64,000 bases of DNA from Minisyncoccota bacterium. GTDB lineage: Bacteria > Patescibacteriota > Minisyncoccia > Phycocordibacterales > UBA9973. Position numbers and translations under genes: made by a program. Location: assembly GCA_035510575.1 (NCBI GenBank), contig DATKGV010000004.1:88419-152418 (forward strand), in the 5' to 3' direction. Positions 3,966 to 48,435 of the stretch are shown here, in pieces (position 1 is the stretch's first letter; every line of letters begins with the position of its first letter). Below the pieces are notes generated by a model. That model ran no database searches and was not told the origin of the DNA. It worked only from the letters and a program-made list of their open reading frames with translations.

Positions 3966-4007
3966 CCACATGTCGGACTTGTGGCTAGCCACAAGTCCGA
4001 CATGTGG
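3966..4007. repeat. 42-nt perfect palindrome CCACATGTCGGACTTGTGGCTAGCCACAAGTCCGACATGTGG in the rpoB-rpoC intergenic space
   Basis: The reverse complement, computed by hand, equals the sequence. It lies exactly between the rpoB stop (4018..4020) and the rpoC start (3952). Confidence 0.9.
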
Positions 4008-7227: not shown

Positions 7228-7450
7228 ATAAAAAGAAAAACAAAAAAACACCAAGGCGACCAAACCTGTGCGTTATTATTTATTTATAATTGGCAGTGAT
7301 ATTGTTTTTAAGCACAAAAAATGCCTGCTACCCGCTTACAAAACTTATTAAATTAGTGCGATTGATGCCATAACTCAATCTAGTCAATCTGGGTCTGAGT
7401 ATACAGAAAAATAATTCTTTGTCAAGAAAGTTATCAACAGCATCATCGAA

Positions 7451-7540
7451 TTCCTCCTCCCCTGCGAAGGGGAGGATTAAGGAGGGGTGAATTAATTAAT
7501 GCACCCCCTCTGCCCTTTCGGGCATCTCCTTACAGGAGCA
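7451..7540 (-). promoter_or_regulatory. Cluster of four consecutive GC-rich hairpins in the rpoB 5' leader / RAYT 3' region (candidate structured RNA)
   Basis: Stems: CCTCCCC-TGCGAA-GGGGAGG, GGAGGGGTG-N11-CACCCCCTC, TGCCC-TTTC-GGGCA and CTCCT-TAC-AGGAG. On the minus strand the loops read GAAA and UUCGCA. A GGAGG segment is shared between alternative stems. The surrounding DNA is AT-rich. Confidence 0.3.
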
Positions 7541-7561: not shown

Positions 7562-7588
7562 AGTAAGCTAGGACAGTCCTAGCTTACT
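7562..7588. repeat. REP-like palindrome AGTAAGCTAGGACAGTCCTAGCTTACT (core AAGCTAGGACAGTCCTAGCTT)
   Basis: Near-perfect palindrome with an unpaired centre base. It overlaps the last codons and the TAG stop of the RAYT gene. Confidence 0.85.
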
Positions 7589-8259
7589 GAAGTGAAATAA
7601 TTTTCAACAAATTTTTGGAATGACTGCTTTAATTGAAAATAATCTGGAAATGCTACTTTATTTAAAATATTACCTTCCACTCTATCGAGACCAAGATAAT
7701 CAAAATAACTTGAATAATTATATGATTCAAGAAAATCTTTCATTGCTTTATTGTCAACATTTTTATTCTTATCCTGTTTTTCCCAACCAGAAAACTTTAT
7801 ATCAAATACATTTAGATGGATATATGCAAAAAGTTGTCGCATATAATTATCATCTGTTTTTATACATTTTGATTTAAAAGGCCCACCGAATAAAGCACCT
7901 TGTCTTTGATATTTTATATTGAAGAACATTGAATATCCTGTACCTAATTTTTTCATAAATTTAGTAATACCACTATCTATTTCCTGTCTAACCAAAATAT
8001 GAAAATGGTTTGCCATAAGACACCATGCGCCAATTGAAACAAGCGGTTTACCCTTATCTAAAATCATAACTTCAAAAAAAGACTTTTTTTGTTGATTTAT
8101 AAGATTATTTAATTTAAATTCCTCCTGAGAATTTGAAATATAAATAAGCATAATAAATCTTTCAAAATCATATTTTGATTTGAAAATAATTCTTTTATCT
8201 ATACCACGATTGTACAAATGATAATATTCGCCAGTGATAAATGGATCTTTTCGCAACAT
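7579..8259 (-). CDS. HUH-family Y1 transposase (RAYT / IS200-like TnpA)
   Basis: Motifs: YHLYNRG N-terminal block, HUH motif NHFHILV, and the catalytic Tyr block YIHLN (compare YIYINP in E. coli RAYT). Confidence 0.75.
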   Translation of the reverse strand: MLRKDPFITGEYYHLYNRGIDKRIIFKSKYDFERFIMLIYISNSQEEFKLNNLINQQKKSFFEVMILDKGKPLVSIGAWCLMANHFHILVRQEIDSGITKFMKKLGTGYSMFFNIKYQRQGALFGGPFKSKCIKTDDNYMRQLFAYIHLNVFDIKFSGWEKQDKNKNVDNKAMKDFLESYNYSSYFDYLGLDRVEGNILNKVAFPDYFQLKQSFQKFVENYFTSVS

Positions 8260-8268
8260 GTCTTGTAT

Positions 8269-8309
8269 TATATACCATAAGCTAGGACAGTCCTAGCTTA
8301 TGGTATATA
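8269..8309. repeat. REP-like palindrome TATATACCATAAGCTAGGACAGTCCTAGCTTATGGTATATA
   Basis: 41-nt near-perfect palindrome 10 nt upstream of the RAYT start. It shares the 21-nt core with 7562..7588. Confidence 0.85.
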
Positions 8310-8343: not shown

Positions 8344-11300
8344 TTAATTTGCTGCATCACTTGGAGGAACTACAGGATCTGGAGCAGATGTAGAATCAGG
8401 CGCTGCAGGCGGAGTCACAACTTGATCGCTTGGGGGAACTGTTGTATCGTCTGCAGGCGGAGTTACTGATGAATCACTTGCAGGAGCTGTCGAATCTGAA
8501 GCTGGAACCGTTGAATCGGTGGTTGCGGGTTCGGTTGCAGATGGTGCTGATGAACCCGAATTGTCTGCGGTAGAGCTTACATGCGCATTATTTAAAATTT
8601 GAATCAATTGCGCTTCGTCAATGCAGGTATTATTGATGCAGATTTCATTGCTGCTATGAATTGTCTTGGCATACAGATCAGCGATGCCATTGGCTTGATC
8701 AGCTAAGAATTGCGTGATGAGCGAACCTAATGAAGTAGCCGAAGTCGTATCAAGAGACGAAAGATCTTTTATTTTGAGATCCATTTCTTGAATGGCTTTA
8801 ACCGCGTATGGCATCATGCCTAAGTAGTTGAGTGATAGAAGATTGGTATTTGGATCGGTAGAAACCAAATCAGGGAAGATTTGCTTTACATCTTGAGCAA
8901 TGAAGCCGGCATGCTTGGCATCGGTGTCTTGTTCAACTTTCCAATTATACGTTACTGGAACTAGAGCAAGTATTTTGTCCAGTGTTGTTATTGGAGTCGT
9001 GCCAAGTTCTGTTTCCGTCCATGCCATGCCATCTAGAGTGTTGACGTTCTTTTTTAAATTCATGTCTGAACTGCAAGCAAAACCGCTTGATATCGGCACA
9101 ACATCGCAAGTTCCTGCGGAAGTTTGAAATCTTCCTACAATTATATTAGCCGTAGTGGAAGCCGAGCCGACATGGAGAAGATAGCCGGGAGCAGTATTGG
9201 AAATTCCGACATCGCCGTTGCCTAATATTCTCATCGCTTCCGTCATTGTCTGCAATGTCGTGCCACTTCCAAGAGTTTTGCCCGTTGAGAAAATTATGTT
9301 CGAAGCTCCTGTGCCTGTGCCTAGACCAGAGTTTAGCAATAGATTTCCGCCAACCACGTTAGAAACAGAAGTTCCAGCGACAGTTGAACCTGATTGAATA
9401 GTCAGATTATTAGGCGCGACGTCAGTGGCGGAATTTTCAATCCACATGGTTCGATCAGCGCCGGCTCCGAATGATAAAATATTGGTCGGCGTACTTGTAC
9501 CAATACCCAAAGTCGTAATGCTGCTATTGCCTATCACCACCTGGTTGCTGGCGGTAGTGTAAGCGGCATTTCCCAGAGCCATTGAGTTGATAGCGCCTAC
9601 AAGCTGGCTGGCGTTACTTCCGGCGTTAGCTCCCAAAAATGTATTCTGATAGCCGACTGTTATAGACGAACCAGCCGAATTACCAATACCCGTATTAGAA
9701 CCATTATTTCCAGAACCATTCGTGAAAGAAGAAAGAGCGGAAACTCCGACAGCGACATTAGCGCCCGCGGCAGTAACGTTAGGCAGAGCGTTAGTTCCAA
9801 AAGCCGTATTGCCAGTAGTAGTTGTTTTTGCCAAAGCCCCATTGCCAACAGCCGTATTATTTCCTCCTGAAATATTTGCCGCCAGAGTGTTCCAACCAAT
9901 CGCTATATTTTGCGAGCCTGATGTCAATACATTCATAGCTCCTATGCCGATGCCGACATTCTTATCACCAGTCATTGCTGGCGGTCTGGCTCCAATAAGA
10001 ATTGAAAGAGGGTTAGCTGTGCCGATGCTCCCAGCGTTATAAACCGAGAATAGAGAACCGCCATTAGCGTCTGCCACGTTGAGAGTTGGAACATTTACTG
10101 TCGTGGTGATTGTCCAGGTAGCGCCTATGCCATGAGTAAGCTTTCCACCGAAAGTAACCGTCACGCCGTTAGATAATGCTTGAGCCGCAAGAGTAATCGC
10201 CGTATCAGCCGAACTAGCTCCGCCGTCCACATTCCAAGTGAACATATCATAACCCTGTAAAGCGGAAATATTGACTGTACAGCCCGTTCCAGTTCCGCCA
10301 GTTGTCGCTACTACTCCCGTTGAATATCCTGATCCGCCAGTCAAAAGTGTCATCGCATTACATCCCCCGCTTGATAAGCTCGTAACCTTTACGGTCGCCG
10401 CGCCATTGCCGCCAGTCAAAGTCAAAACATCATTCACTGTATAACCTGAACCGCCGACTGATTTGGCGACTGTCTTGACCGGATTTATCTCACTGATAGT
10501 AACGACATAAGACGAATTAGTATTGCCGACATAAGTTCCGCCCGCAGTAGCGTCGTTCGTTCCTGAACCTGAGAATACAACCGCTGACCGAGTCGCCAAA
10601 GATTTTACATCAAGAGTGGCGACGGGAGAAGTATTATTTATCCCTAGACGGATATTCGCCCCGTCATAAGCGGAACTAGCCCCGAAAAATATCTTGCCTT
10701 TCGTAGCGTTTGAAGTAGAATTTAAAGTTAGGTTTTCACCAGCGGCAGTACCGCCGTAAACAGTTTGCCCGCCGGCAATGCCGGTAGCCAGATTATCAGT
10801 AATGGTGTTTGTGGAACGAGTTAAGCCCGTGGAAAAAGTAAGAGGCACCTCGTAAGCGTTAGCGTTAGTGAACGCGGCTGAACCAAGAGTTCCCCCGCCA
10901 GTTGGAATAGTTAAAGTCGCTCCCGCCGCCGGCCAAGTTAAAGTTCCCGCCCCGCCGTTATTGGTGAATGTTGTAGTGAAAGTGGCGTTAGAAACGGCCA
11001 CTGCTGTTCCGCCCACTGCCAAAGCGCCAACGTCGGAATAAGTCAAATTCGTGCCATTGATTTTGTAATGAGAACCAGTCGCAATATTAACATCTCCATT
11101 AACATCTAATTTGTAGTTAGGCGCAGTTATTCCTATTCCCACTTTTTGAGCGCTATCTATTCTCATCGCTTCAGTCAAAACAGATGGCGAAGCGTCAGTC
11201 GCTGTAGAAAATGACAAATAAGTAGGAATACGAGTAGAAGCCACTGTACCGGAAACTCCGACATCTATGCTTCCCATTTCAAGATAACTTGCTCCGTCAT

Positions 11301-13923
11301 ATCCCCTGAATAGCAAACGGCCTAACATATCACCTGTGTTTACTGAAAGAAGCGCAGATGGAGTTCCGCGCGCTTTCCAAAATCCCAAGCGGGCAGAGTT
11401 TGTGCCGTTGTTTATTTGTGATGACACAATTCCTCGCGGATCAGAAGTATCAGTAGTAACGACTTGAAGTTTTGTAAGAGGAGCGGTAGTTCCGATTCCC
11501 AGACGATTATTTGTCTCATCATAAGCTGAAGCTCCCATGATTATTAAACCTTTTGTAGCGTTTGAAGTAGAAGTTAAAGTTAGATTTCCTGAAGCGGCAG
11601 TATCGCCGACTAAAGTCGTTCCGCCTGCTATGCCGACATTGTTTTGAAGATAGCCAGTGAGAGATGCAGAAGTCAAATAAGCAACATTGCTTCCCGATGT
11701 TACAAGCCCGCTTGTTCCTACTGTTACATTATTATAAGTTCCTGCAGATGTTCCTGCAGAAGTTAGGAATCCGCCGTAATTTCCCAGATCATTTGTGAAA
11801 GAAGAAAGAGCGGTCGGGAAAGTTGCCAGAGACAAATCACCTCTGAAATATTGAGATGTCGTGCCGGTGGTGATCGTGTTTTGTTTGGCATTGAGGGCAG
11901 TTTGAGTAGCAGTTGATATTGGTTTGTTAGCATCAGATGTATTATCAACATTACTTAGTCCAACTTGAGATTTGGTTAGGCCAGTTAAAGATGAACCATT
12001 GCCATTTGGAGCCAGGAAAACTGTGCCGGCATCAGTAGTGTAGACGCCGTTGGTGACTGTGCCTGCTGTTAATCCTGCGGCGGTACCAGTAATATTTGTG
12101 CCGACTAAAGCAGAAGGAGTTCCAAGGTTGGGAGTGGCAAGCGTCGGAGAGTTTCCAAATACAAGAGATCCGCTTCCCGTTTCATCCGAAATGACTCCTG
12201 CTAATTGAGCAGAAGTGGTAGCGGCAAATGCGGACAAATTATTAGTCGTCAAGGCCACGGTACCTGTAAGATCCGGGAAGGTATAAGTTTTGTCGGAAGA
12301 AGAAAGATGCGCTACATCAAAGATTCCAAATAGTGTCGGCGAAGGGCCATTTTCCAGCATTTTCAGTCCAGCGGAAGAATTATTGAGAACAATATTATAA
12401 GGTGCGGTTTGATTCCAATCCTGAGTCAAAGGACCTAAAGAAAGGACATTAGAAATATTTTGTAAACCATTGCCATAAGATAAGTTTACATTAGCGGATA
12501 GTTGTACCCATTTGGCGAGTGTTCCTGAATAAGTAAATGAAATACCGTAATAAAGAGAACTGGAGTTTTCCACAAAGCGAGCATCACCGCTTGTTGGAGC
12601 AATGCCTGTATAAGTAAAGGCCCCAGGCGTACCGCCTGTCACATTAAATATATAATCTTTAAAACCAGCAAATGTGCCAAAAGGCGCAGTTGAGGATACC
12701 AGCGCCACGCCAAATCGGTCGCCCAAAACCAAAGAATCCAGTTTTACCCACGCGCCATTTTTATATTCTACTATATCGCCCGGAGCAAAAGCGGACCAAA
12801 CACCGGTGTTTCCGCCTGTGTCAATGATATAACCGTCGCCTTCAACAGTGGTTCCGACCGGTGTAGCGGAATTGGCAATAACATTCACAGCTTGAAGCCC
12901 TGTTTTCCAATTCAATCCCATGGCATTATTATCAACGTATGTTTTTACCGCATTTTGCGTTGGATAGAGCGTGTTAGAGGTGCCAAGAGATGTGTTCGTA
13001 GATTTATTGGCAACATCTTCTGGTGTAAACCCTAAGGCAGTATTTACGTCACTCCCAGTAATTCCAGAAATGTATCCGGCAGGATTGGTGGCATTGTAAG
13101 GAGTATAGCCGATAAGTGATGCCACAGAAATATCGCCAGCCCCTAAAAGATTATTAGAATTGATTGTTTTGATATTTGTGCCGGAAACAAGAGTATCTTG
13201 TTTACCAGAAATATCAGTCGTTTGAGTAGCAGCATTTATTGTGAAATTCGGATAAGTGCCGGTAACCGAAGTGATATTAGTTCCCGCTGAAATAGCGACG
13301 GTTTGGTCGGGAGCAATAGATATATCTCCACTACCCAAAAGCGAACTAGAATTGATTGTTTTGATGTTTGTGCCGGCAGGCAAAGTTACCGTGCCGGTAA
13401 AAGTCGGCGAATTGAGAAGTGCGTATAAGCTTGAATCAATTCCTCCCAAGGTCTTGGCATTGATGGCAGCTCCGCTTGAAGTAATACGCCCTCGCGGACC
13501 GAGCGTTTCAAAAGTTATATTATTAGATGAGACCTCCACTTGAAGATAGACGGTATCATTATCTTGGAAATTATAAGTTAGAGCATCAGGATAGCCCGAT
13601 CCTGTATCTCCGATATTCACATCAAAAACACCGTTGGTAACAGAGAGAGTAGCTGTGCCGGGCGAACCTGATGGCCAAAGTTTCGCGCCAGAACCGACAG
13701 TCGGATTATCCCAAATAGAAAATTTAAAATAATAATTTGTGCCTGTTCCTCCCAAAAGAACTCCGTTTGAGTCCGTTAGCCGGCCTTGATAACTAATGAT
13801 ATTAGGAACGCCGGCGGCAGCGTGAGCAACAGAAAAAGAGAAAACGCCCAATATGAACACCGCTAAAATGGCATAGATGCTCTTTGACAAAAAATTATAT
13901 CTCCTTTCAAACATACTTTCCAA
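8344..13923 (-). CDS. Giant (1859 aa) secreted/anchored surface protein with tail-fibre-like repeats and a C-terminal intramolecular-chaperone (peptidase S74-like) domain
   Basis: N-terminal hydrophobic signal/anchor segment. Long G/T/S/N-rich repeat blocks (NTAIG..AL, GIGTTAPxxKLxV). Near the C-terminus, SSDMNLKKNVNTLDG...LALVPVTYNWK...HAGFIAQDVKQIFPDLV...LSLNYLGMMPYAVKAIQEM matches the phage tail-fibre / endosialidase chaperone domain. This is followed by a Pro/Ser/Thr-rich tail. DNA-level internal repeats are visible, for example around 13140..13400. Confidence 0.8.
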   Translation of the reverse strand: MESMFERRYNFLSKSIYAILAVFILGVFSFSVAHAAAGVPNIISYQGRLTDSNGVLLGGTGTNYYFKFSIWDNPTVGSGAKLWPSGSPGTATLSVTNGVFDVNIGDTGSGYPDALTYNFQDNDTVYLQVEVSSNNITFETLGPRGRITSSGAAINAKTLGGIDSSLYALLNSPTFTGTVTLPAGTNIKTINSSSLLGSGDISIAPDQTVAISAGTNITSVTGTYPNFTINAATQTTDISGKQDTLVSGTNIKTINSNNLLGAGDISVASLIGYTPYNATNPAGYISGITGSDVNTALGFTPEDVANKSTNTSLGTSNTLYPTQNAVKTYVDNNAMGLNWKTGLQAVNVIANSATPVGTTVEGDGYIIDTGGNTGVWSAFAPGDIVEYKNGAWVKLDSLVLGDRFGVALVSSTAPFGTFAGFKDYIFNVTGGTPGAFTYTGIAPTSGDARFVENSSSLYYGISFTYSGTLAKWVQLSANVNLSYGNGLQNISNVLSLGPLTQDWNQTAPYNIVLNNSSAGLKMLENGPSPTLFGIFDVAHLSSSDKTYTFPDLTGTVALTTNNLSAFAATTSAQLAGVISDETGSGSLVFGNSPTLATPNLGTPSALVGTNITGTAAGLTAGTVTNGVYTTDAGTVFLAPNGNGSSLTGLTKSQVGLSNVDNTSDANKPISTATQTALNAKQNTITTGTTSQYFRGDLSLATFPTALSSFTNDLGNYGGFLTSAGTSAGTYNNVTVGTSGLVTSGSNVAYLTSASLTGYLQNNVGIAGGTTLVGDTAASGNLTLTSTSNATKGLIIMGASAYDETNNRLGIGTTAPLTKLQVVTTDTSDPRGIVSSQINNGTNSARLGFWKARGTPSALLSVNTGDMLGRLLFRGYDGASYLEMGSIDVGVSGTVASTRIPTYLSFSTATDASPSVLTEAMRIDSAQKVGIGITAPNYKLDVNGDVNIATGSHYKINGTNLTYSDVGALAVGGTAVAVSNATFTTTFTNNGGAGTLTWPAAGATLTIPTGGGTLGSAAFTNANAYEVPLTFSTGLTRSTNTITDNLATGIAGGQTVYGGTAAGENLTLNSTSNATKGKIFFGASSAYDGANIRLGINNTSPVATLDVKSLATRSAVVFSGSGTNDATAGGTYVGNTNSSYVVTISEINPVKTVAKSVGGSGYTVNDVLTLTGGNGAATVKVTSLSSGGCNAMTLLTGGSGYSTGVVATTGGTGTGCTVNISALQGYDMFTWNVDGGASSADTAITLAAQALSNGVTVTFGGKLTHGIGATWTITTTVNVPTLNVADANGGSLFSVYNAGSIGTANPLSILIGARPPAMTGDKNVGIGIGAMNVLTSGSQNIAIGWNTLAANISGGNNTAVGNGALAKTTTTGNTAFGTNALPNVTAAGANVAVGVSALSSFTNGSGNNGSNTGIGNSAGSSITVGYQNTFLGANAGSNASQLVGAINSMALGNAAYTTASNQVVIGNSSITTLGIGTSTPTNILSFGAGADRTMWIENSATDVAPNNLTIQSGSTVAGTSVSNVVGGNLLLNSGLGTGTGASNIIFSTGKTLGSGTTLQTMTEAMRILGNGDVGISNTAPGYLLHVGSASTTANIIVGRFQTSAGTCDVVPISSGFACSSDMNLKKNVNTLDGMAWTETELGTTPITTLDKILALVPVTYNWKVEQDTDAKHAGFIAQDVKQIFPDLVSTDPNTNLLSLNYLGMMPYAVKAIQEMDLKIKDLSSLDTTSATSLGSLITQFLADQANGIADLYAKTIHSSNEICINNTCIDEAQLIQILNNAHVSSTADNSGSSAPSATEPATTDSTVPASDSTAPASDSSVTPPADDTTVPPSDQVVTPPAAPDSTSAPDPVVPPSDAAN

Positions 13924-17279: not shown

Positions 17280-17310
17280 AATCAGCCATAAGTCCGACTT
17301 ATGGCTGATT
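17280..17310. repeat. 31-nt palindrome AATCAGCCATAAGTCCGACTTATGGCTGATT at the trmD 3' end, followed by a T-run on the plus strand
   Basis: The right arm encodes the last codons and the TAA stop of trmD. It shares the GTCGGACTT/AAGTCCGAC core with the rpoB-rpoC palindrome. Confidence 0.8.
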
Positions 17311-26633: not shown

Positions 26634-27593
26634 TTAATTCGCTTTTTTTGTAAGAATCTCTATCGCTTTAGTTAAAAGAGGTACCATGTTGTCATACATT
26701 TTAAGATTCGGAATTTCTTCAAGCGCAAACCATCTTGCGTCATCCAATCCTCCAGTGCCTTTTTCAAGGACAATATTTGCATACGGAGATTCGCCGAGAA
26801 AGAATACGACTTGCTTGCGAATTTTCCCTTTTTCCGGATGCGAGGCTATATATTCATTGCGTCCAAGCAATTCTTTTATTTTAATATCAAGGCCCATTTC
26901 TTCCTTTATCTCGCGAATGGCGCCTTGTTCTTCATTTTCATTTTCTTCAATGCTTCCTTTAGAAAGAGTCCAGTAGCCAAACACGTCATGAACGAAGGCG
27001 AAATAAATTTGGCTGTTTTCTATCGCATAAACGACGGCGCCGGCTTTTTTCTCTATCGGGAATTTAGCGGGATCAGTTTCAAAATGCTTGTTCTTCCTGC
27101 TGACATCATTCTTGCCTGGCTCGCCTATTTCCTTATAGACCCCGCCCAGAACTCCGTTTATGAATTTGCTGGAGTTTTCCCCGCCGAAACTCTTGGCAAG
27201 CTCGATTGATTCGTTGATTGCCACTTTGGGCGGCACTTCCTTATGATCGCCGAACAATAATTCATATAATCCTATACGCAGAATATTGCGGTCCACTATT
27301 GATATCTTATCAATCGGCCAATCCGGAGCGGCTTTCTCGATGATTTCATCGATAATCGGCTTTTTCTTTATAATGCCGAGAAAAAGCTCCTGCATAAATT
27401 GCGAGTCGTCAAGCCCCGGTCCGAATTCTAGAATGTTGCGATTAAGCATCTCTTTTGGATTCATTTCATTATTCAATGAAAAATCCCACTCAAAGAGCGT
27501 CTGAAGAACAATTGAACGTGAAAGGTGCCTGTTTGCCATAAAAAATCTAGAAAATAAAATCTTGAAATGTTTCTTGTATAAGAAACATTTCAA
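26634..27593 (-). CDS. nusB: NusB-like antitermination domain fused to a NUDIX hydrolase
   Basis: N-terminal NusB blocks (RHLSRSIVLQTLFEWDF...ILRIGLYELLF...FINGVLGGV). C-terminal Nudix box GSIEENENEEQGAIREIKEEMGL. Confidence 0.75.
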   Translation of the reverse strand: MKCFLYKKHFKILFSRFFMANRHLSRSIVLQTLFEWDFSLNNEMNPKEMLNRNILEFGPGLDDSQFMQELFLGIIKKKPIIDEIIEKAAPDWPIDKISIVDRNILRIGLYELLFGDHKEVPPKVAINESIELAKSFGGENSSKFINGVLGGVYKEIGEPGKNDVSRKNKHFETDPAKFPIEKKAGAVVYAIENSQIYFAFVHDVFGYWTLSKGSIEENENEEQGAIREIKEEMGLDIKIKELLGRNEYIASHPEKGKIRKQVVFFLGESPYANIVLEKGTGGLDDARWFALEEIPNLKMYDNMVPLLTKAIEILTKKAN

Positions 27594-27597
27594 GATT

Positions 27598-27807
27598 TTA
27601 TTTTTTCTTTTTAGCTTGCTTCTTCTCTACTTTCTTTACCACATCTATAACCTTGCGCCCGTTGTAAAAACCGCAATTTTTGCAAATTATATGAGTTTCC
27701 TTTGCTCCCTTGCAATTTGAACACGTGGCAAAAACCTTGGCTTTCAAGGCATGATGTGATCGGCGGTTCCCCGTATGAGCTCGCGTATGTCGCATTCGTA
27801 CTACCAT
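27598..27807 (-). CDS. rpmF: 50S ribosomal protein L32
   Basis: RMRHTRAHTGNRRSHHAL N-terminal block plus a CxxC...CxxC zinc ribbon. Confidence 0.7.
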   Translation of the reverse strand: MVVRMRHTRAHTGNRRSHHALKAKVFATCSNCKGAKETHIICKNCGFYNGRKVIDVVKKVEKKQAKKKK

Positions 27808-30464: not shown

Positions 30465-30487
30465 TCCCATAGGTCTGACCTATGGGA
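30465..30487. repeat. REP-like palindrome TCCCATAGGTCTGACCTATGGGA
   Basis: Palindrome with arms of about 11 bp and an unpaired centre base. Lies 3 nt after the thrS stop and contains the TAG stop of RAYT2. Confidence 0.85.
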
Positions 30488-31205
30488 TTTGGTCATGGTC
30501 TAAATTAATCCAATTAAAAAGATCATTTATATGAGAATTCTTTAGATATTCAGGTAAAAATTTTTTATTAATAATTTTAATTTCTTTTCTATTTTCTAAA
30601 AAATAATCATAAAAACTGGAGTAGTAGTATTTTTTTAAATATTCTTTCGCTTTATTTTTATCTTTAATTCCCTTTTGTTTCCAGTCTGATTGAATTAATT
30701 TTATAGGGTTTAGATGTATATATGAAAATAAATAATTAAAATAGTTCTCTTCTTTTACAATTTTAGATTTAAATTTTCCTTCAAATAATGATCCAGTACG
30801 ACTATATTTTTTATTAAAGTACATTGCATAAGCAGTAGATAGTTTCCTCATGAATTCAGTAATTGGATTATATTCTTCTTCCCATAGGTCAGACCTATGG
30901 GAAATAACAAATAAATGAAAATGGTTAGGCATTAACACCCAAGCTAGTATAGATACAATAGGTGTTCCTATTTCAAAATCAAAAGCTTCAATTTTGGGAT
31001 TAACTATATTTTCACGAAAAACAAGCTTTCTTTTGGAATTACAGACATAAAGCAATTTAATAAAATGATCATAATCTTCTTTGTCTAAGAAAATATCATT
31101 TTTACCATTTCCACGATTATATAAATGGTAATATTCTTTACAAACTAAATTTTCTACTCTTAATCCCATAGTTATATTATATAATAATAGATACAAATCT
31201 CCCAT
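30480..31205 (-). CDS. HUH-family Y1 transposase (RAYT / IS200-like), second copy type, with an in-frame internal palindrome
   Basis: Motifs YHLYNRG, NHFHLFV and YIHLNP. The likely true start is MGLRVENL (ATG rc 31167..31169). The annotated ATG at 31203..31205 is itself created by the upstream palindrome. Residues SHRSDLWEE are encoded by the internal palindrome at 30879..30903. Confidence 0.7.
   Translation of the reverse strand: MGDLYLLLYNITMGLRVENLVCKEYYHLYNRGNGKNDIFLDKEDYDHFIKLLYVCNSKRKLVFRENIVNPKIEAFDFEIGTPIVSILAWVLMPNHFHLFVISHRSDLWEEEYNPITEFMRKLSTAYAMYFNKKYSRTGSLFEGKFKSKIVKEENYFNYLFSYIHLNPIKLIQSDWKQKGIKDKNKAKEYLKKYYYSSFYDYFLENRKEIKIINKKFLPEYLKNSHINDLFNWINLDHDQIP
30879..30903. repeat. 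Internal copy of the RAYT2 palindrome (TTCCCATAGGTCAGACCTATGGGAA) inside the RAYT2 coding sequence
   Basis: Same arms as the flanking copies, but the centre base is inverted (GGTCAGACC versus GGTCTGACC). It is in-frame and corresponds to an extra segment relative to RAYT1, placed right after the HUH motif. Confidence 0.85.
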
Positions 31206-31225
31206 AGGTCTGACCTATGGGAGAT
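31197..31225. repeat. REP-like palindrome ATCTCCCATAGGTCTGACCTATGGGAGAT upstream of RAYT2
   Basis: Palindrome with 14-bp arms and the same core as 30465..30487. Confidence 0.85.
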
Positions 31226-35724: not shown

Positions 35725-36498
35725 TTAAAATTGATTCAAACGAAGATCTCCTTGATAAAAAATTCTGACATCGGGAATATTCCAGCGAATCATCGCTATG
35801 CGGTCAAGGCCTCCGCCAAAAGCGAAACCTTGAACTTTTCCCGGATCAAGACCCGCATTGCGAAGAACATTCGGATGAATCATTCCTCCTCCCATCATTT
35901 CAAGCCATCTGCCATTAAATTTGGCATGAACTTCAACGGACGGTTCGGTAAACGGGAAAAAGCTCGGTCTGAATTCTATTTCCACATCTTCTCCGAGAAC
36001 TTTTTTATAAAATTCAATAAGTATGCCTTTTAAGTTGGCAAGATTAATATCTTTTCCAATCATTACGCCGTCAACTTGATAGAACTGCATTTCATGGGTA
36101 ATATCGGTCGCTTCATTGCGGAATACTTTTCCGACAGAAATAAAAGCTCCTGTATCTTTGCCTTCCTTTGCCAATCTTTCAAGCATGCGTATAGAAACGC
36201 TTGTGGTGTGAGTGCGAAGCACCAAATTAGAAGCAGAAAAAGAAGTTTTTTCGCGGTCTGGTGAACCAACCCGAGGACCCGAAAAAACTTCTTTTTCTGC
36301 TGGAGATTTAATCCAAAAAGTATCCTGCATATCGCGGGCAGGATGATCTTTGGACACATTTAAAGCATCAAAGTTATACCATTCTGTTTCAAGCTCAGGA
36401 CCCATGGCAATTTCAAATCCAAGTTTTGAGAATACAGAATATGTTTCTTCTTGAAGCAAAGTTAACGGATGCAAACTTCCCTTTGGTATATCTTCCAT
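35725..36498 (-). CDS. pheS: Phenylalanine--tRNA ligase alpha subunit (short, lacks N-terminal extension)
   Basis: Class II motifs FRPSFFPFTEPSVEV and GFAFGGGLDRIAM. Confidence 0.9.
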   Translation of the reverse strand: MEDIPKGSLHPLTLLQEETYSVFSKLGFEIAMGPELETEWYNFDALNVSKDHPARDMQDTFWIKSPAEKEVFSGPRVGSPDREKTSFSASNLVLRTHTTSVSIRMLERLAKEGKDTGAFISVGKVFRNEATDITHEMQFYQVDGVMIGKDINLANLKGILIEFYKKVLGEDVEIEFRPSFFPFTEPSVEVHAKFNGRWLEMMGGGMIHPNVLRNAGLDPGKVQGFAFGGGLDRIAMIRWNIPDVRIFYQGDLRLNQF

Positions 36499-46037: not shown

Positions 46038-46071
46038 TGCTACAAACTCTGCACGTGCAGAGTTTGTAGCA
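46038..46071. repeat. 34-nt perfect palindrome TGCTACAAACTCTGCACGTGCAGAGTTTGTAGCA (copy 1)
   Basis: The reverse complement, computed by hand, equals the sequence. Lies between the purD start and the stop of the Cys-rich gene. Confidence 0.9.
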
Positions 46072-47857: not shown

Positions 47858-47891
47858 TGCTACAAACTCTGCACGTGCAGAATTTGTAGCA
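47858..47891. repeat. 34-nt palindrome copy 2 (1 mismatch) centred in the divergent promoter region; candidate operator
   Basis: TGCTACAAACTCTGCACGTGCAGAATTTGTAGCA. Each arm contains a TTGTAG hexamer roughly 16-17 nt upstream of a TATAAT-like element, one for each divergent gene. Confidence 0.85.
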
Positions 47892-48401: not shown

Positions 48402-48435
48402 TGCTACAAACTCTGCAGGTGCAGAGTTTGTAGCA
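48402..48435. repeat. 34-nt palindrome copy 3 (centre CAGGTG instead of CACGTG)
   Basis: TGCTACAAACTCTGCAGGTGCAGAGTTTGTAGCA. Starts 4 nt after the stop of the PaaX-like gene. Confidence 0.85.

Follow-up and report, generated by a model that had tools for sequence, protein, structure and literature searches.

We analyzed a 64,000-nt stretch of DNA (64 kb; hereafter, the window) from contig DATKGV010000004.1 of a Minisyncoccota bacterium. Positions 7562-8309 of the window hold a 748-bp unit in which one gene resembling REP-associated tyrosine transposases (RAYTs; REP, repetitive extragenic palindrome) is bracketed by two copies of its own hairpin. We think that this unit, called unit A here, is probably a compact module of the REPtron/TIRtron kind, with the order hairpin-gene-hairpin. 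It would belong to a family that is widespread in Paceibacteria/Nomurabacteria of the Candidate Phyla Radiation (CPR) and would encode a single-stranded DNA (ssDNA) endonuclease/ligase that acts rarely at its own hairpin. The unit is a low-copy CPR relative of known REP/IS200 systems and not a genome-wide repeat system. Our reading builds on the anatomy of the unit, the family of its protein by sequence and fold, the co-occurrence of hairpin and protein, covariation within the stems, and the boundaries of an indel and a duplication.

The repeats on either side of the gene share the 21-nt core AAGCTAGGACAGTCCTAGCTT, which is found at positions 7565-7585 and 8279-8299. These are the only exact copies in the window (0 expected). 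No further copy was found there even when up to 3 mismatches were allowed, and the core occurred 0 times in 100 shuffles of the window. The palindrome upstream of the gene (on its 5' side) spans positions 8269-8309 and has perfect 20-nt arms around one central base, with the family core at 8279-8299. The downstream palindrome spans positions 7562-7588 and has 13-nt arms around the core at 7565-7585. Neither palindrome is assigned to a strand. The limits of both extended palindromes match exactly those given in the original prediction, which was also correct in placing the downstream palindrome over the end of the gene: the TAA stop codon (7579-7581) lies inside it. Folded as ssDNA, both palindromes are predicted to form hairpins with a 3-nt loop (-12.3 kcal/mol, z = -7.1 for the downstream copy; -17.5 kcal/mol, z = -8.5 for the upstream copy). 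No T-run follows either hairpin in the window and a promoter/terminator scan called no terminator there. The window had no Rfam match at the gathering score.

Some hairpins have arms that extend 4-9 bp past the family core, and these extensions are specific to individual copies (window 8269-8309; L044 9937-9969; L042 10732-10766; L023 7581-7609; loci outside the window are cited by L numbers throughout). The gene-proximal arm of the upstream palindrome in the window extends into a -10-like box. Since the extension in the window mirrors the -10 region of the gene itself, the proximal flank seems to have served as the template for the distal one, a form of palindrome growth.

The gene between the palindromes (7579-8259, minus strand) encodes a 226-aa protein that starts with MLRKDPFITGEYYHLYNRG. 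Its sequence contains an H85-F-H87 motif, a Y146-IHLNV motif, and a YSSYFDY motif (S183, S184) in an 80-aa tail. The protein matched the Pfam family Y1_Tnp (PF01797) over residues 55-148 with 27.1 bits (cut-off 23), as did 42 of 44 family members. Residues N84, H85, F86, H87, Y146, H148, N150, S183, and S184 are invariant in an alignment of the 44 sequences, in which protein length ranges from 222 to 235 aa. In an AlphaFold2 model (pLDDT 85.7), the HUH motif (N84-H85-F86-H87) lies on a predicted strand (residues 85-92), and Y146, the predicted catalytic residue, lies about 60 residues further on in a helix (residues 137-154). The tail of the protein is helical in the model. The best match of the model in a Foldseek search of the PDB was the Escherichia coli TnpA_REP protein in complex with a REP hairpin (4ER8, E = 8e-6, probability 1.0), followed by TnpA structures of IS608 and ISDra2; the hits next after 4ER8 were 2VIC and 2A6O, also with probability 1.0. 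Its motifs and modeled fold mark the protein as a divergent Y1 HUH enzyme of the RAYT-like class-2 Y...NP type. The original prediction of an HUH-Y1 gene flanked by palindromes with a common 21-nt core is thus borne out by the two exact copies, the Y1_Tnp match, and the 4ER8 fold.

The family is large, with more than 1,700 matches to the protein of unit A in the protein collection, and public records label its genes 'transposase' or 'RayT'. One database entry, labelled 'Candidatus Paceibacterota bacterium' and encoded on a 176.7-kb contig, is 100% identical to the window protein. Searches of the family with PADLOC and PHROGs returned no match. Because viral contigs yielded only one relative, at 25% identity, we conclude that the family is not phage-borne, nor is it a known defence family.

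A TATAAT hexamer that may serve as the -10 element lies at positions 8267-8272 (minus strand), 7 nt before the ATG. It does not leave Shine-Dalgarno spacing, so the transcript is probably leaderless. A consensus promoter scan called no promoter for gene 7579-8259. A TATAAT, TATACT, or TAAAAT box was present 7-9 nt upstream of the ATG in eight of nine aligned ortholog loci and at 6 nt in L040. In five of the nine (L004, L007, L040, L041, and L042), the 3' arm of the hairpin (TTGC[ATG][AT]) lies 17 nt from this box; in the window and L001, the two are 10 nt closer together. As read from these sequences, the hairpin probably overlaps the promoter of the gene.

We retrieved orthologs with 67-78% identity, together with their flanking DNA, from 11 other Paceibacteria/Nomurabacteria genomes. 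All 12 genomes, including that of the window, have the layout hairpin-promoter-gene-hairpin with the same palindrome family on both sides. The distance from the start of the proximal upstream core to the ATG is 36-48 nt; it is 48 nt in six scanned loci and 36-38 nt in L001, L048, L050, and the window. At the 3' end of the gene, the hairpin of the 12 genomes overlaps the stop codon or follows it within about 35 nt. The locus in the window was also recovered independently in a contig from a long-read metagenome (L039). Relative to the window, that copy has 52 indels, most of them in homopolymers, and only 4 mismatches. We considered whether it is a decaying pseudogene and rejected this idea, because homopolymer indels with few mismatches indicate sequencing error.

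The hairpins of these loci follow the consensus GC[AT]AG[GA]AC-N-GT[CT]CT[AT]GC. The central base is free to vary and can differ between the upstream and downstream hairpins of a single gene, and the outer stems differ by lineage (TAAGC, CTAGC, CTCGC, GGCGC, or TATGC). Across 33 hairpins, 94% of cells pair and both sides have changed in 6 of 12 pairs. The covariation score was 0.44 against 0.14 in shuffles, and none of 500 shuffles reached it. The hairpin variant also follows protein similarity: GCTAGGAC, the form present in the window, accompanies orthologs with 77-78% identity (L001/L032, L019, and L050), and GCAAGAAC or GCAAGGAC accompanies orthologs with 67-74% identity. The canonical GT[AG]G foot of REP sequences was absent from these hairpins, whose feet are TAAG/CTTA, CTAG, CTCG, GGCG, or TATG depending on the lineage. 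These results show that the pairing of the protein with its own hairpin is conserved and co-varies across relatives.

We searched for hairpins of the unit A family (A-type hairpins) away from the gene. None was found in the window with a degenerate pattern that allowed 2 mismatches. An exact-match scan of 185,579 species-representative genomes, which diverged copies would escape, recovered the 21-mer in only two CPR metagenome-assembled genomes (MAGs). The Nomurabacteria representative genome JAPLXU01 contains it at the two flanks only, and the related MAG CAZQAW01 contains it at both flanks and at 2 solo sites. A scan of JGI metagenomes with a 23-mer returned three contigs: the locus of the window in L039 and two solo sites. 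Solo hairpins occur in L007, L040, L049, L023, L030, L037, and L038; in the first three of these, a single copy lies 1-9 kb from the gene. In L004 and L042, the gene is set among arrays of 4-7 hairpins, and in-frame copies lie within the A gene itself in L044 and L049, in a loop past the Tyr helix. The hairpins can therefore spread, yet they are present in units of copies and not in tens or hundreds.

Several hairpins are followed directly by one or more tandem repeats of the 3' arm plus 2-4 nt (13-14 nt, counted from the first base past the apex). These repeats are located at L004 3070-3111, L007 5688-5725, L037 704-745, L041 10688-10730, and L048 10677-10740, and they may be the footprint of a recurrent process at the hairpin. 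A solo A-type hairpin at L038 1460-1590 sits exactly between tandem copies of a 47-nt sequence, and its left arm is partly duplicated.

The identical 21-mer was also found in MAGs of Nitrososphaera, Nitrosopumilales, and Thermoproteota and once in a Peptoniphilaceae MAG. We considered a link across domains and rejected it. The archaeal loci (L017, L018, L021, L022, L024-L029, L031, and L033-L035), often at contig ends, carry the 21-mer about 25 nt in from the end of a multi-copy element that is unrelated to unit A and conserved over more than 400 nt, and no RAYT homolog is present in them. The archaeal matches probably reflect convergence of short palindromes.

The window contains a second unit of this kind (unit B, 30465-31222). 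Its gene (30483-31172, minus strand) lies 22 kb from unit A and encodes a paralog that is 43% identical to the A protein. It is flanked by a different palindrome, TCCCATAGGTCTGACCTATGGGA, and a third, inverted copy of that palindrome lies inside the gene at 30880-30902. The B palindrome has the form CCCATAGGTC-N-GACCTATGGG and is kept in an ortholog with 72% identity (L046). The internal hairpin lies just past the HUH motif, where it is translated as SHRSDLW. We rejected the possibility that this 7-aa insert is a recent REP insertion: SHRSDL(W) is present in nearly all aligned B orthologs, so the insertion must be ancient and fixed in the coding sequence. The B family had more than 7,800 matches in the protein collection. 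Because A and B have different private palindromes, two protein/hairpin pairs coexist in the window, in agreement with the original prediction that each RAYT has a palindrome family of its own. The low copy number of class-2 TnpA_Y1 genes and the low identity between copies in one genome also hold here, with one A gene and one B gene in 64 kb whose proteins are 43% identical; L048, described below, is an exception.

Other palindromes and RAYT-like genes were observed around these units. Within the rpoBC operon, between the rpoB stop codon and the probable real start of rpoC, two inverted B-like units (CCACATGTCGGACTTGTGG / CCACAAGTCCGACATGTGG) make up a perfect 42-nt palindrome at positions 3966-4007, which forms a REPIN-like doublet. 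A solo B-like palindrome with 15-nt arms and the core CCATAAGTCCGACTTATGG, which is compensated relative to B, lies at 17280-17310 in the gap between a dockerin-protein gene and trmD. A third, unrelated palindrome family of 34 nt (TGCTACAAACTCTGCAC/GTGCAGAGTTTGTAGCA) occupies three consecutive intergenic gaps within 2.4 kb (46038-46071, 47858-47891, and 48402-48435), with no HUH gene nearby. Within the window, this family is more REP-like in its distribution than the A hairpin. Two long, perfect inverted repeats unrelated to A or B were found at 27551-27604 and 36232-36301; the arms measure 25 nt in one and 22 nt in the other, with spacers of 4 and 26 nt, respectively. A third RAYT-like family is represented 5 kb from unit A in L050 (15296-15955). 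Its 219-aa protein has the motifs NHFH, YIHKNP, and WSSYQDY and is 33-35% identical to A and B.

Comparisons among the related genomes revealed signs of movement. In L048 (GCA_943350875.1), two units (9960-10701 and 12222-12963) lie 2.26 kb apart and are 100% identical. Their identity starts at the first base of the upstream hairpin and stops at the last base of the downstream hairpin. The sequences upstream of the two units are unrelated, and those downstream are similar and visibly diverged. This is the sole multi-copy case that we saw. The ruvA-rpsT interval of L040 has the arrangement hairpin-open reading frame-hairpin-gene-hairpin; L041 has about 45 nt in this interval and carries its own copy of the unit elsewhere. 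The window and L044 share a uvrD-pheS-pheT-gyrB-thrS block in which units A and B occupy different gaps. In L044, unit A and a gene for a 1199-aa beta-helix protein lie between pheT and gyrB, where the window has only an empty gap. In the window, unit B separates gyrB from thrS, and the corresponding gap of L044 is empty. We saw no conserved flank sequence or direct repeat at the unit ends, and no pair of filled and empty sites was close enough to read the target. The hairpin-bounded unit behaves as a discrete movable module.

The units are also conserved among relatives. The window and L044 are 67% identical in unit A and 72% identical in unit B, compared with 80% for GyrB, 73% for PheS, 61% for PheT, 48% for ThrRS, and 31% for a UvrD-like protein. 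Between L040 and L041, A is 67% identical and six neighbouring genes are 33-77% identical. For P0070, the context was the same on all 24 contigs read. Conservation of A and B therefore falls within the housekeeping range. Bertels et al. (2017, PMC5581495) described single copies with housekeeping-range conservation as the pattern of RAYTs and not of insertion sequences.

We propose a mechanism by analogy with characterized HUH systems, from which the recognition of an ssDNA hairpin, the cleavage chemistry, and the autoregulation are taken. The gene product would be a class-2 Y1 HUH endonuclease/ligase for ssDNA. By homology, H85 and H87 would hold a metal ion and Y146 would form a 5'-phosphotyrosine link. 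The likely substrate is the cognate palindrome, extruded as a hairpin when the DNA becomes single-stranded, with cleavage and rejoining at the hairpin feet. The enzyme could then copy or move the hairpin alone, the whole hairpin-bounded gene, or a hairpin-bounded neighbouring segment, at a very low rate. Rare movement at hairpin feet would explain why the units change sites within syntenic blocks, why the window has one copy of the gene, and why conservation stays within the housekeeping range. Since the upstream hairpin abuts or overlaps the promoter of the gene at a fixed distance, protein bound to this hairpin would autoregulate its own expression.

Several alternatives were weighed against this proposal. 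Unit A is unlikely to be an ordinary autonomous IS200/IS605 element whose palindromes are the subterminal hairpins of the left and right ends and which transposes by a peel-and-paste mechanism. Such elements (IS200, IS608, and ISDra2; subclass 1.1) do share the HUH-Y1 fold and the compact format seen here, a single-gene unit of about 0.7 kb with a hairpin near each end (748 bp in the window). They would also account for the varying sites in related genomes, the two L048 units that are identical from hairpin to hairpin, and the hairpin-bounded indel in the ruvA-rpsT interval of L040 and L041, cases in which the hairpins delimit the mobile unit. However, the Y...Q motif and core-only protein of about 150 aa that characterize these elements (PMC6006769) were not found here; the family has YIHLN[PV], a Y...NP-type motif, and the window protein has 226 aa with an SS tail. 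There is no tnpB. Both end hairpins of unit A are identical perfect palindromes at the very ends, without conserved offset cleavage sequences. The window has one copy per family, the P0070 context is constant, and ortholog conservation in the housekeeping range fits long vertical residence. Identical copies of about 750 bp, which had been named in the original prediction as the sign of an IS200 element, were absent from the window and present once in L048, so the element sits between the REPtron and IS200 categories. A classical REPtron, in which the flanks would be local members of a cognate REP/REPIN family dispersed in tens to hundreds of copies by a domesticated RAYT, also seems rather improbable. 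The REPtron label in the original prediction was right about the layout, the cognate flanks, and the class-2 enzyme. The fold is nearest to E. coli TnpA_REP (YafM, 4ER8; subclass 2.2), and the unit resembles the E. coli REPtron in its single copy, its private palindrome per paralog, and its conservation, as described for RAYTs (PMC5581495). The 4-7-hairpin arrays of L004 and L042 and the few solo copies in relatives also point in this direction. The label fails on the dispersed high-copy REPs: beyond the flanks, the 64 kb contain no A-type hairpin, exact-match scans gave 0 and 2 solo copies for two related MAGs, and only three JGI metagenome contigs carry the 23-mer. The window has neither high-copy A-type REPs nor a 5' GTAG foot, its family has perfect 10-20 bp stems with a 3-nt loop in place of bulged stems, and its protein is 60 aa longer than that of E. 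coli, without a match at the sequence level. The score against the NCBIfam REP_Tyr_transpos equivalog was far under the cut-off.

It is very unlikely that the palindromes are purely cis-regulatory, serving as a promoter operator or insulator and as an mRNA 3'-end stabiliser or terminator, with the HUH protein acting elsewhere. The fixed distance between the upstream hairpin and the ATG, the 17-nt spacing between the 3' arm and the TATAAT-like box in five of nine aligned loci, and the position of the downstream hairpin at the stop codon would suit such roles. Yet the hairpins are not followed by a T-run or a called terminator, and the promoter spacing is off by 10 nt in the window and L001. Hairpins also occur solo at distances of kilobases, in arrays, and in frame within coding sequence, and a duplicated unit begins and ends exactly at them. 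Chance or an assembly artefact has a negligible probability. Short perfect palindromes do recur across huge databases, as the 21-mer in an archaeal insertion sequence end and in a Peptoniphilaceae MAG illustrates, but none appeared in 100 shuffles of the window, the locus was recovered independently in a long-read contig, and its architecture is repeated in 11 other genomes. Returning to the hairpin-bounded module with a rarely acting enzyme, we note several points that count against it. The covariation, taken alone, fits equally well a hairpin or a two-fold symmetric site in double-stranded DNA for a dimeric binding protein. Without a GT[AG]G guide tetranucleotide, the enzyme has no evident means of choosing its cleavage site. 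The hairpins could persist merely as promoter/insulator and mRNA-end elements, and the lack of any A-type hairpin away from the gene means that the window gives no direct sign of activity. The protein is also remote from characterized members. It scored 26.4 bits against NCBIfam NF047646 (cut-off 80), and a profile of the family matched nothing among PDB sequences at E<=1, so that only the fold comparison ties the protein to TnpA_REP. The Tyr motif, which is YIHLNP in most orthologs and in the paralog, is YIHLNV in the window protein, a P-to-V change in the Y...NP motif that is likewise present in P0010.

We compared unit A to other described systems and found that TIRtron/TIRYT is the closest category. 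In a TIRtron, a RAYT-like gene has non-GTAG repeats on either side at fixed distances (Di Nocera et al. 2013, PMC3733652). Some of these repeats are self-complementary, some overlap the 3' end of the gene, and a dispersed family is often absent or has few members (PMC3733652). TIRtron/TIRYT corresponds to TnpA_Y1 subclass 2.1 of Quentin et al. (2018, PMC6006769) and to group 1 of Bertels. From motif inspection, without a tree, the window protein appears to match the subclass 2.1 signature by its NHFH, YIHLN[P/V], and YSSY motifs and its length of about 226 aa. The subclass as a whole is similar in its NH[YF]H and Y[IV]HLNP motifs, its SS tail, and its median length of 238 aa, and TIRtrons and unit A have low copy numbers and non-GTAG flanking repeats at fixed distances in common. 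There are also differences. Quentin et al. saw no REP-like structures beside subclass 2.1 genes, whereas every ortholog here has them. The GGGGWSAS motif of most described TIRs is absent from the repeats of the window family, and the host is a CPR bacterium, outside the groups covered by those surveys. Finally, Pfam detected no helix-turn-helix or DnaA_C-like C-terminal domain (Bac_DnaA_C, HTH_23, or HTH_28 like) in the 44 members at E<=0.01. The in-frame cognate hairpins inside the genes of family B and of the A orthologs in L044 and L049 are reminiscent of subclass 2.4 TnpA_REP, in which REPs are inserted in frame in tnpA (Quentin et al. 2018). However, subclass 2.4 has the Tyr motif YIxNNP, a median length of 194 aa, and REPs with GT[AG]G 'double feet', and the A gene of the window has no internal hairpin. 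The original prediction had also described REPtrons as mainly proteobacterial. This is only partly right, since REP-associated subclasses occur in Cyanobacteria, Bacteroidetes, and other phyla as well (PMC6006769). Literature searches returned nothing relevant on a CPR-specific description of these units.

The genomic setting of unit A agrees with its predicted placement between rpoB and a group of surface-protein genes. The window has a G+C content of 40%. Directly downstream of the unit is rpoB, followed by rpoC. Directly upstream is the gene for a 1859-aa surface protein with a Peptidase_S74 domain, followed by genes for cohesin- and dockerin-domain proteins. No rplJ or rplL homologs were found in the 64-kb window. 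Unit A lies 2-7 kb upstream of rplJ-rplL in L042, L048, and L049, where rplJ-rplL is followed by a mechanosensitive-channel gene and not by rpoB. Two G+C-rich hairpins, each unique in the window (7455-7507, TCCTCCCCTGCGAAGGGGAGGA; 7398-7425, GGGGTGAATTAATTAATGCACCCC), sit between unit A and a strong rpoB promoter-like site (TTGACA-16-TATACT, minus strand). A surface-type gene encoding 377-1859 aa directly abuts unit A in at least 6 of the 12 contexts (window 8344-13923; L001 5772-8273; L007 2736-4943; L041 10755-11888; L044 10817-14416; L048 4366-9821). The encoded proteins have Peptidase_S74, Gly_rich_2, Laminin_G_3, Beta_helix, or PG_binding_1 domains.

The finding brings no new mechanism to light. 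Its practical value lies in annotation: public labels say only 'transposase', so knowing the hairpin partner improves the description of these genes, and it marks the hairpins as probable sources of broken contigs and local rearrangement in CPR MAGs. In Proteobacteria, the question of what domesticated HUH enzymes of the RAYT/TIRYT type do for their hosts is obscured by hundreds of REPs that have secondary roles. The CPR family may represent a stripped-down case, with tiny genomes, two or three paralogs, and private hairpins. Each of these hairpins is present in only a few copies, and the boundaries can be read to the nucleotide. As a speculation to which we give little credence at present, Paceibacteria may keep two or three domesticated RAYT-like HUH enzymes that serve the host, each with a private and nearly copy-less hairpin, and the module may mark and process the borders of hypervariable surface-protein islands. 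Hints of such a border role come from the adjacency of surface-type genes, the filled gap in L044, and conservation in the housekeeping range. In that role, the breaking and joining of ssDNA would allow the gain, loss, or exchange of large surface-protein genes beside housekeeping operons.

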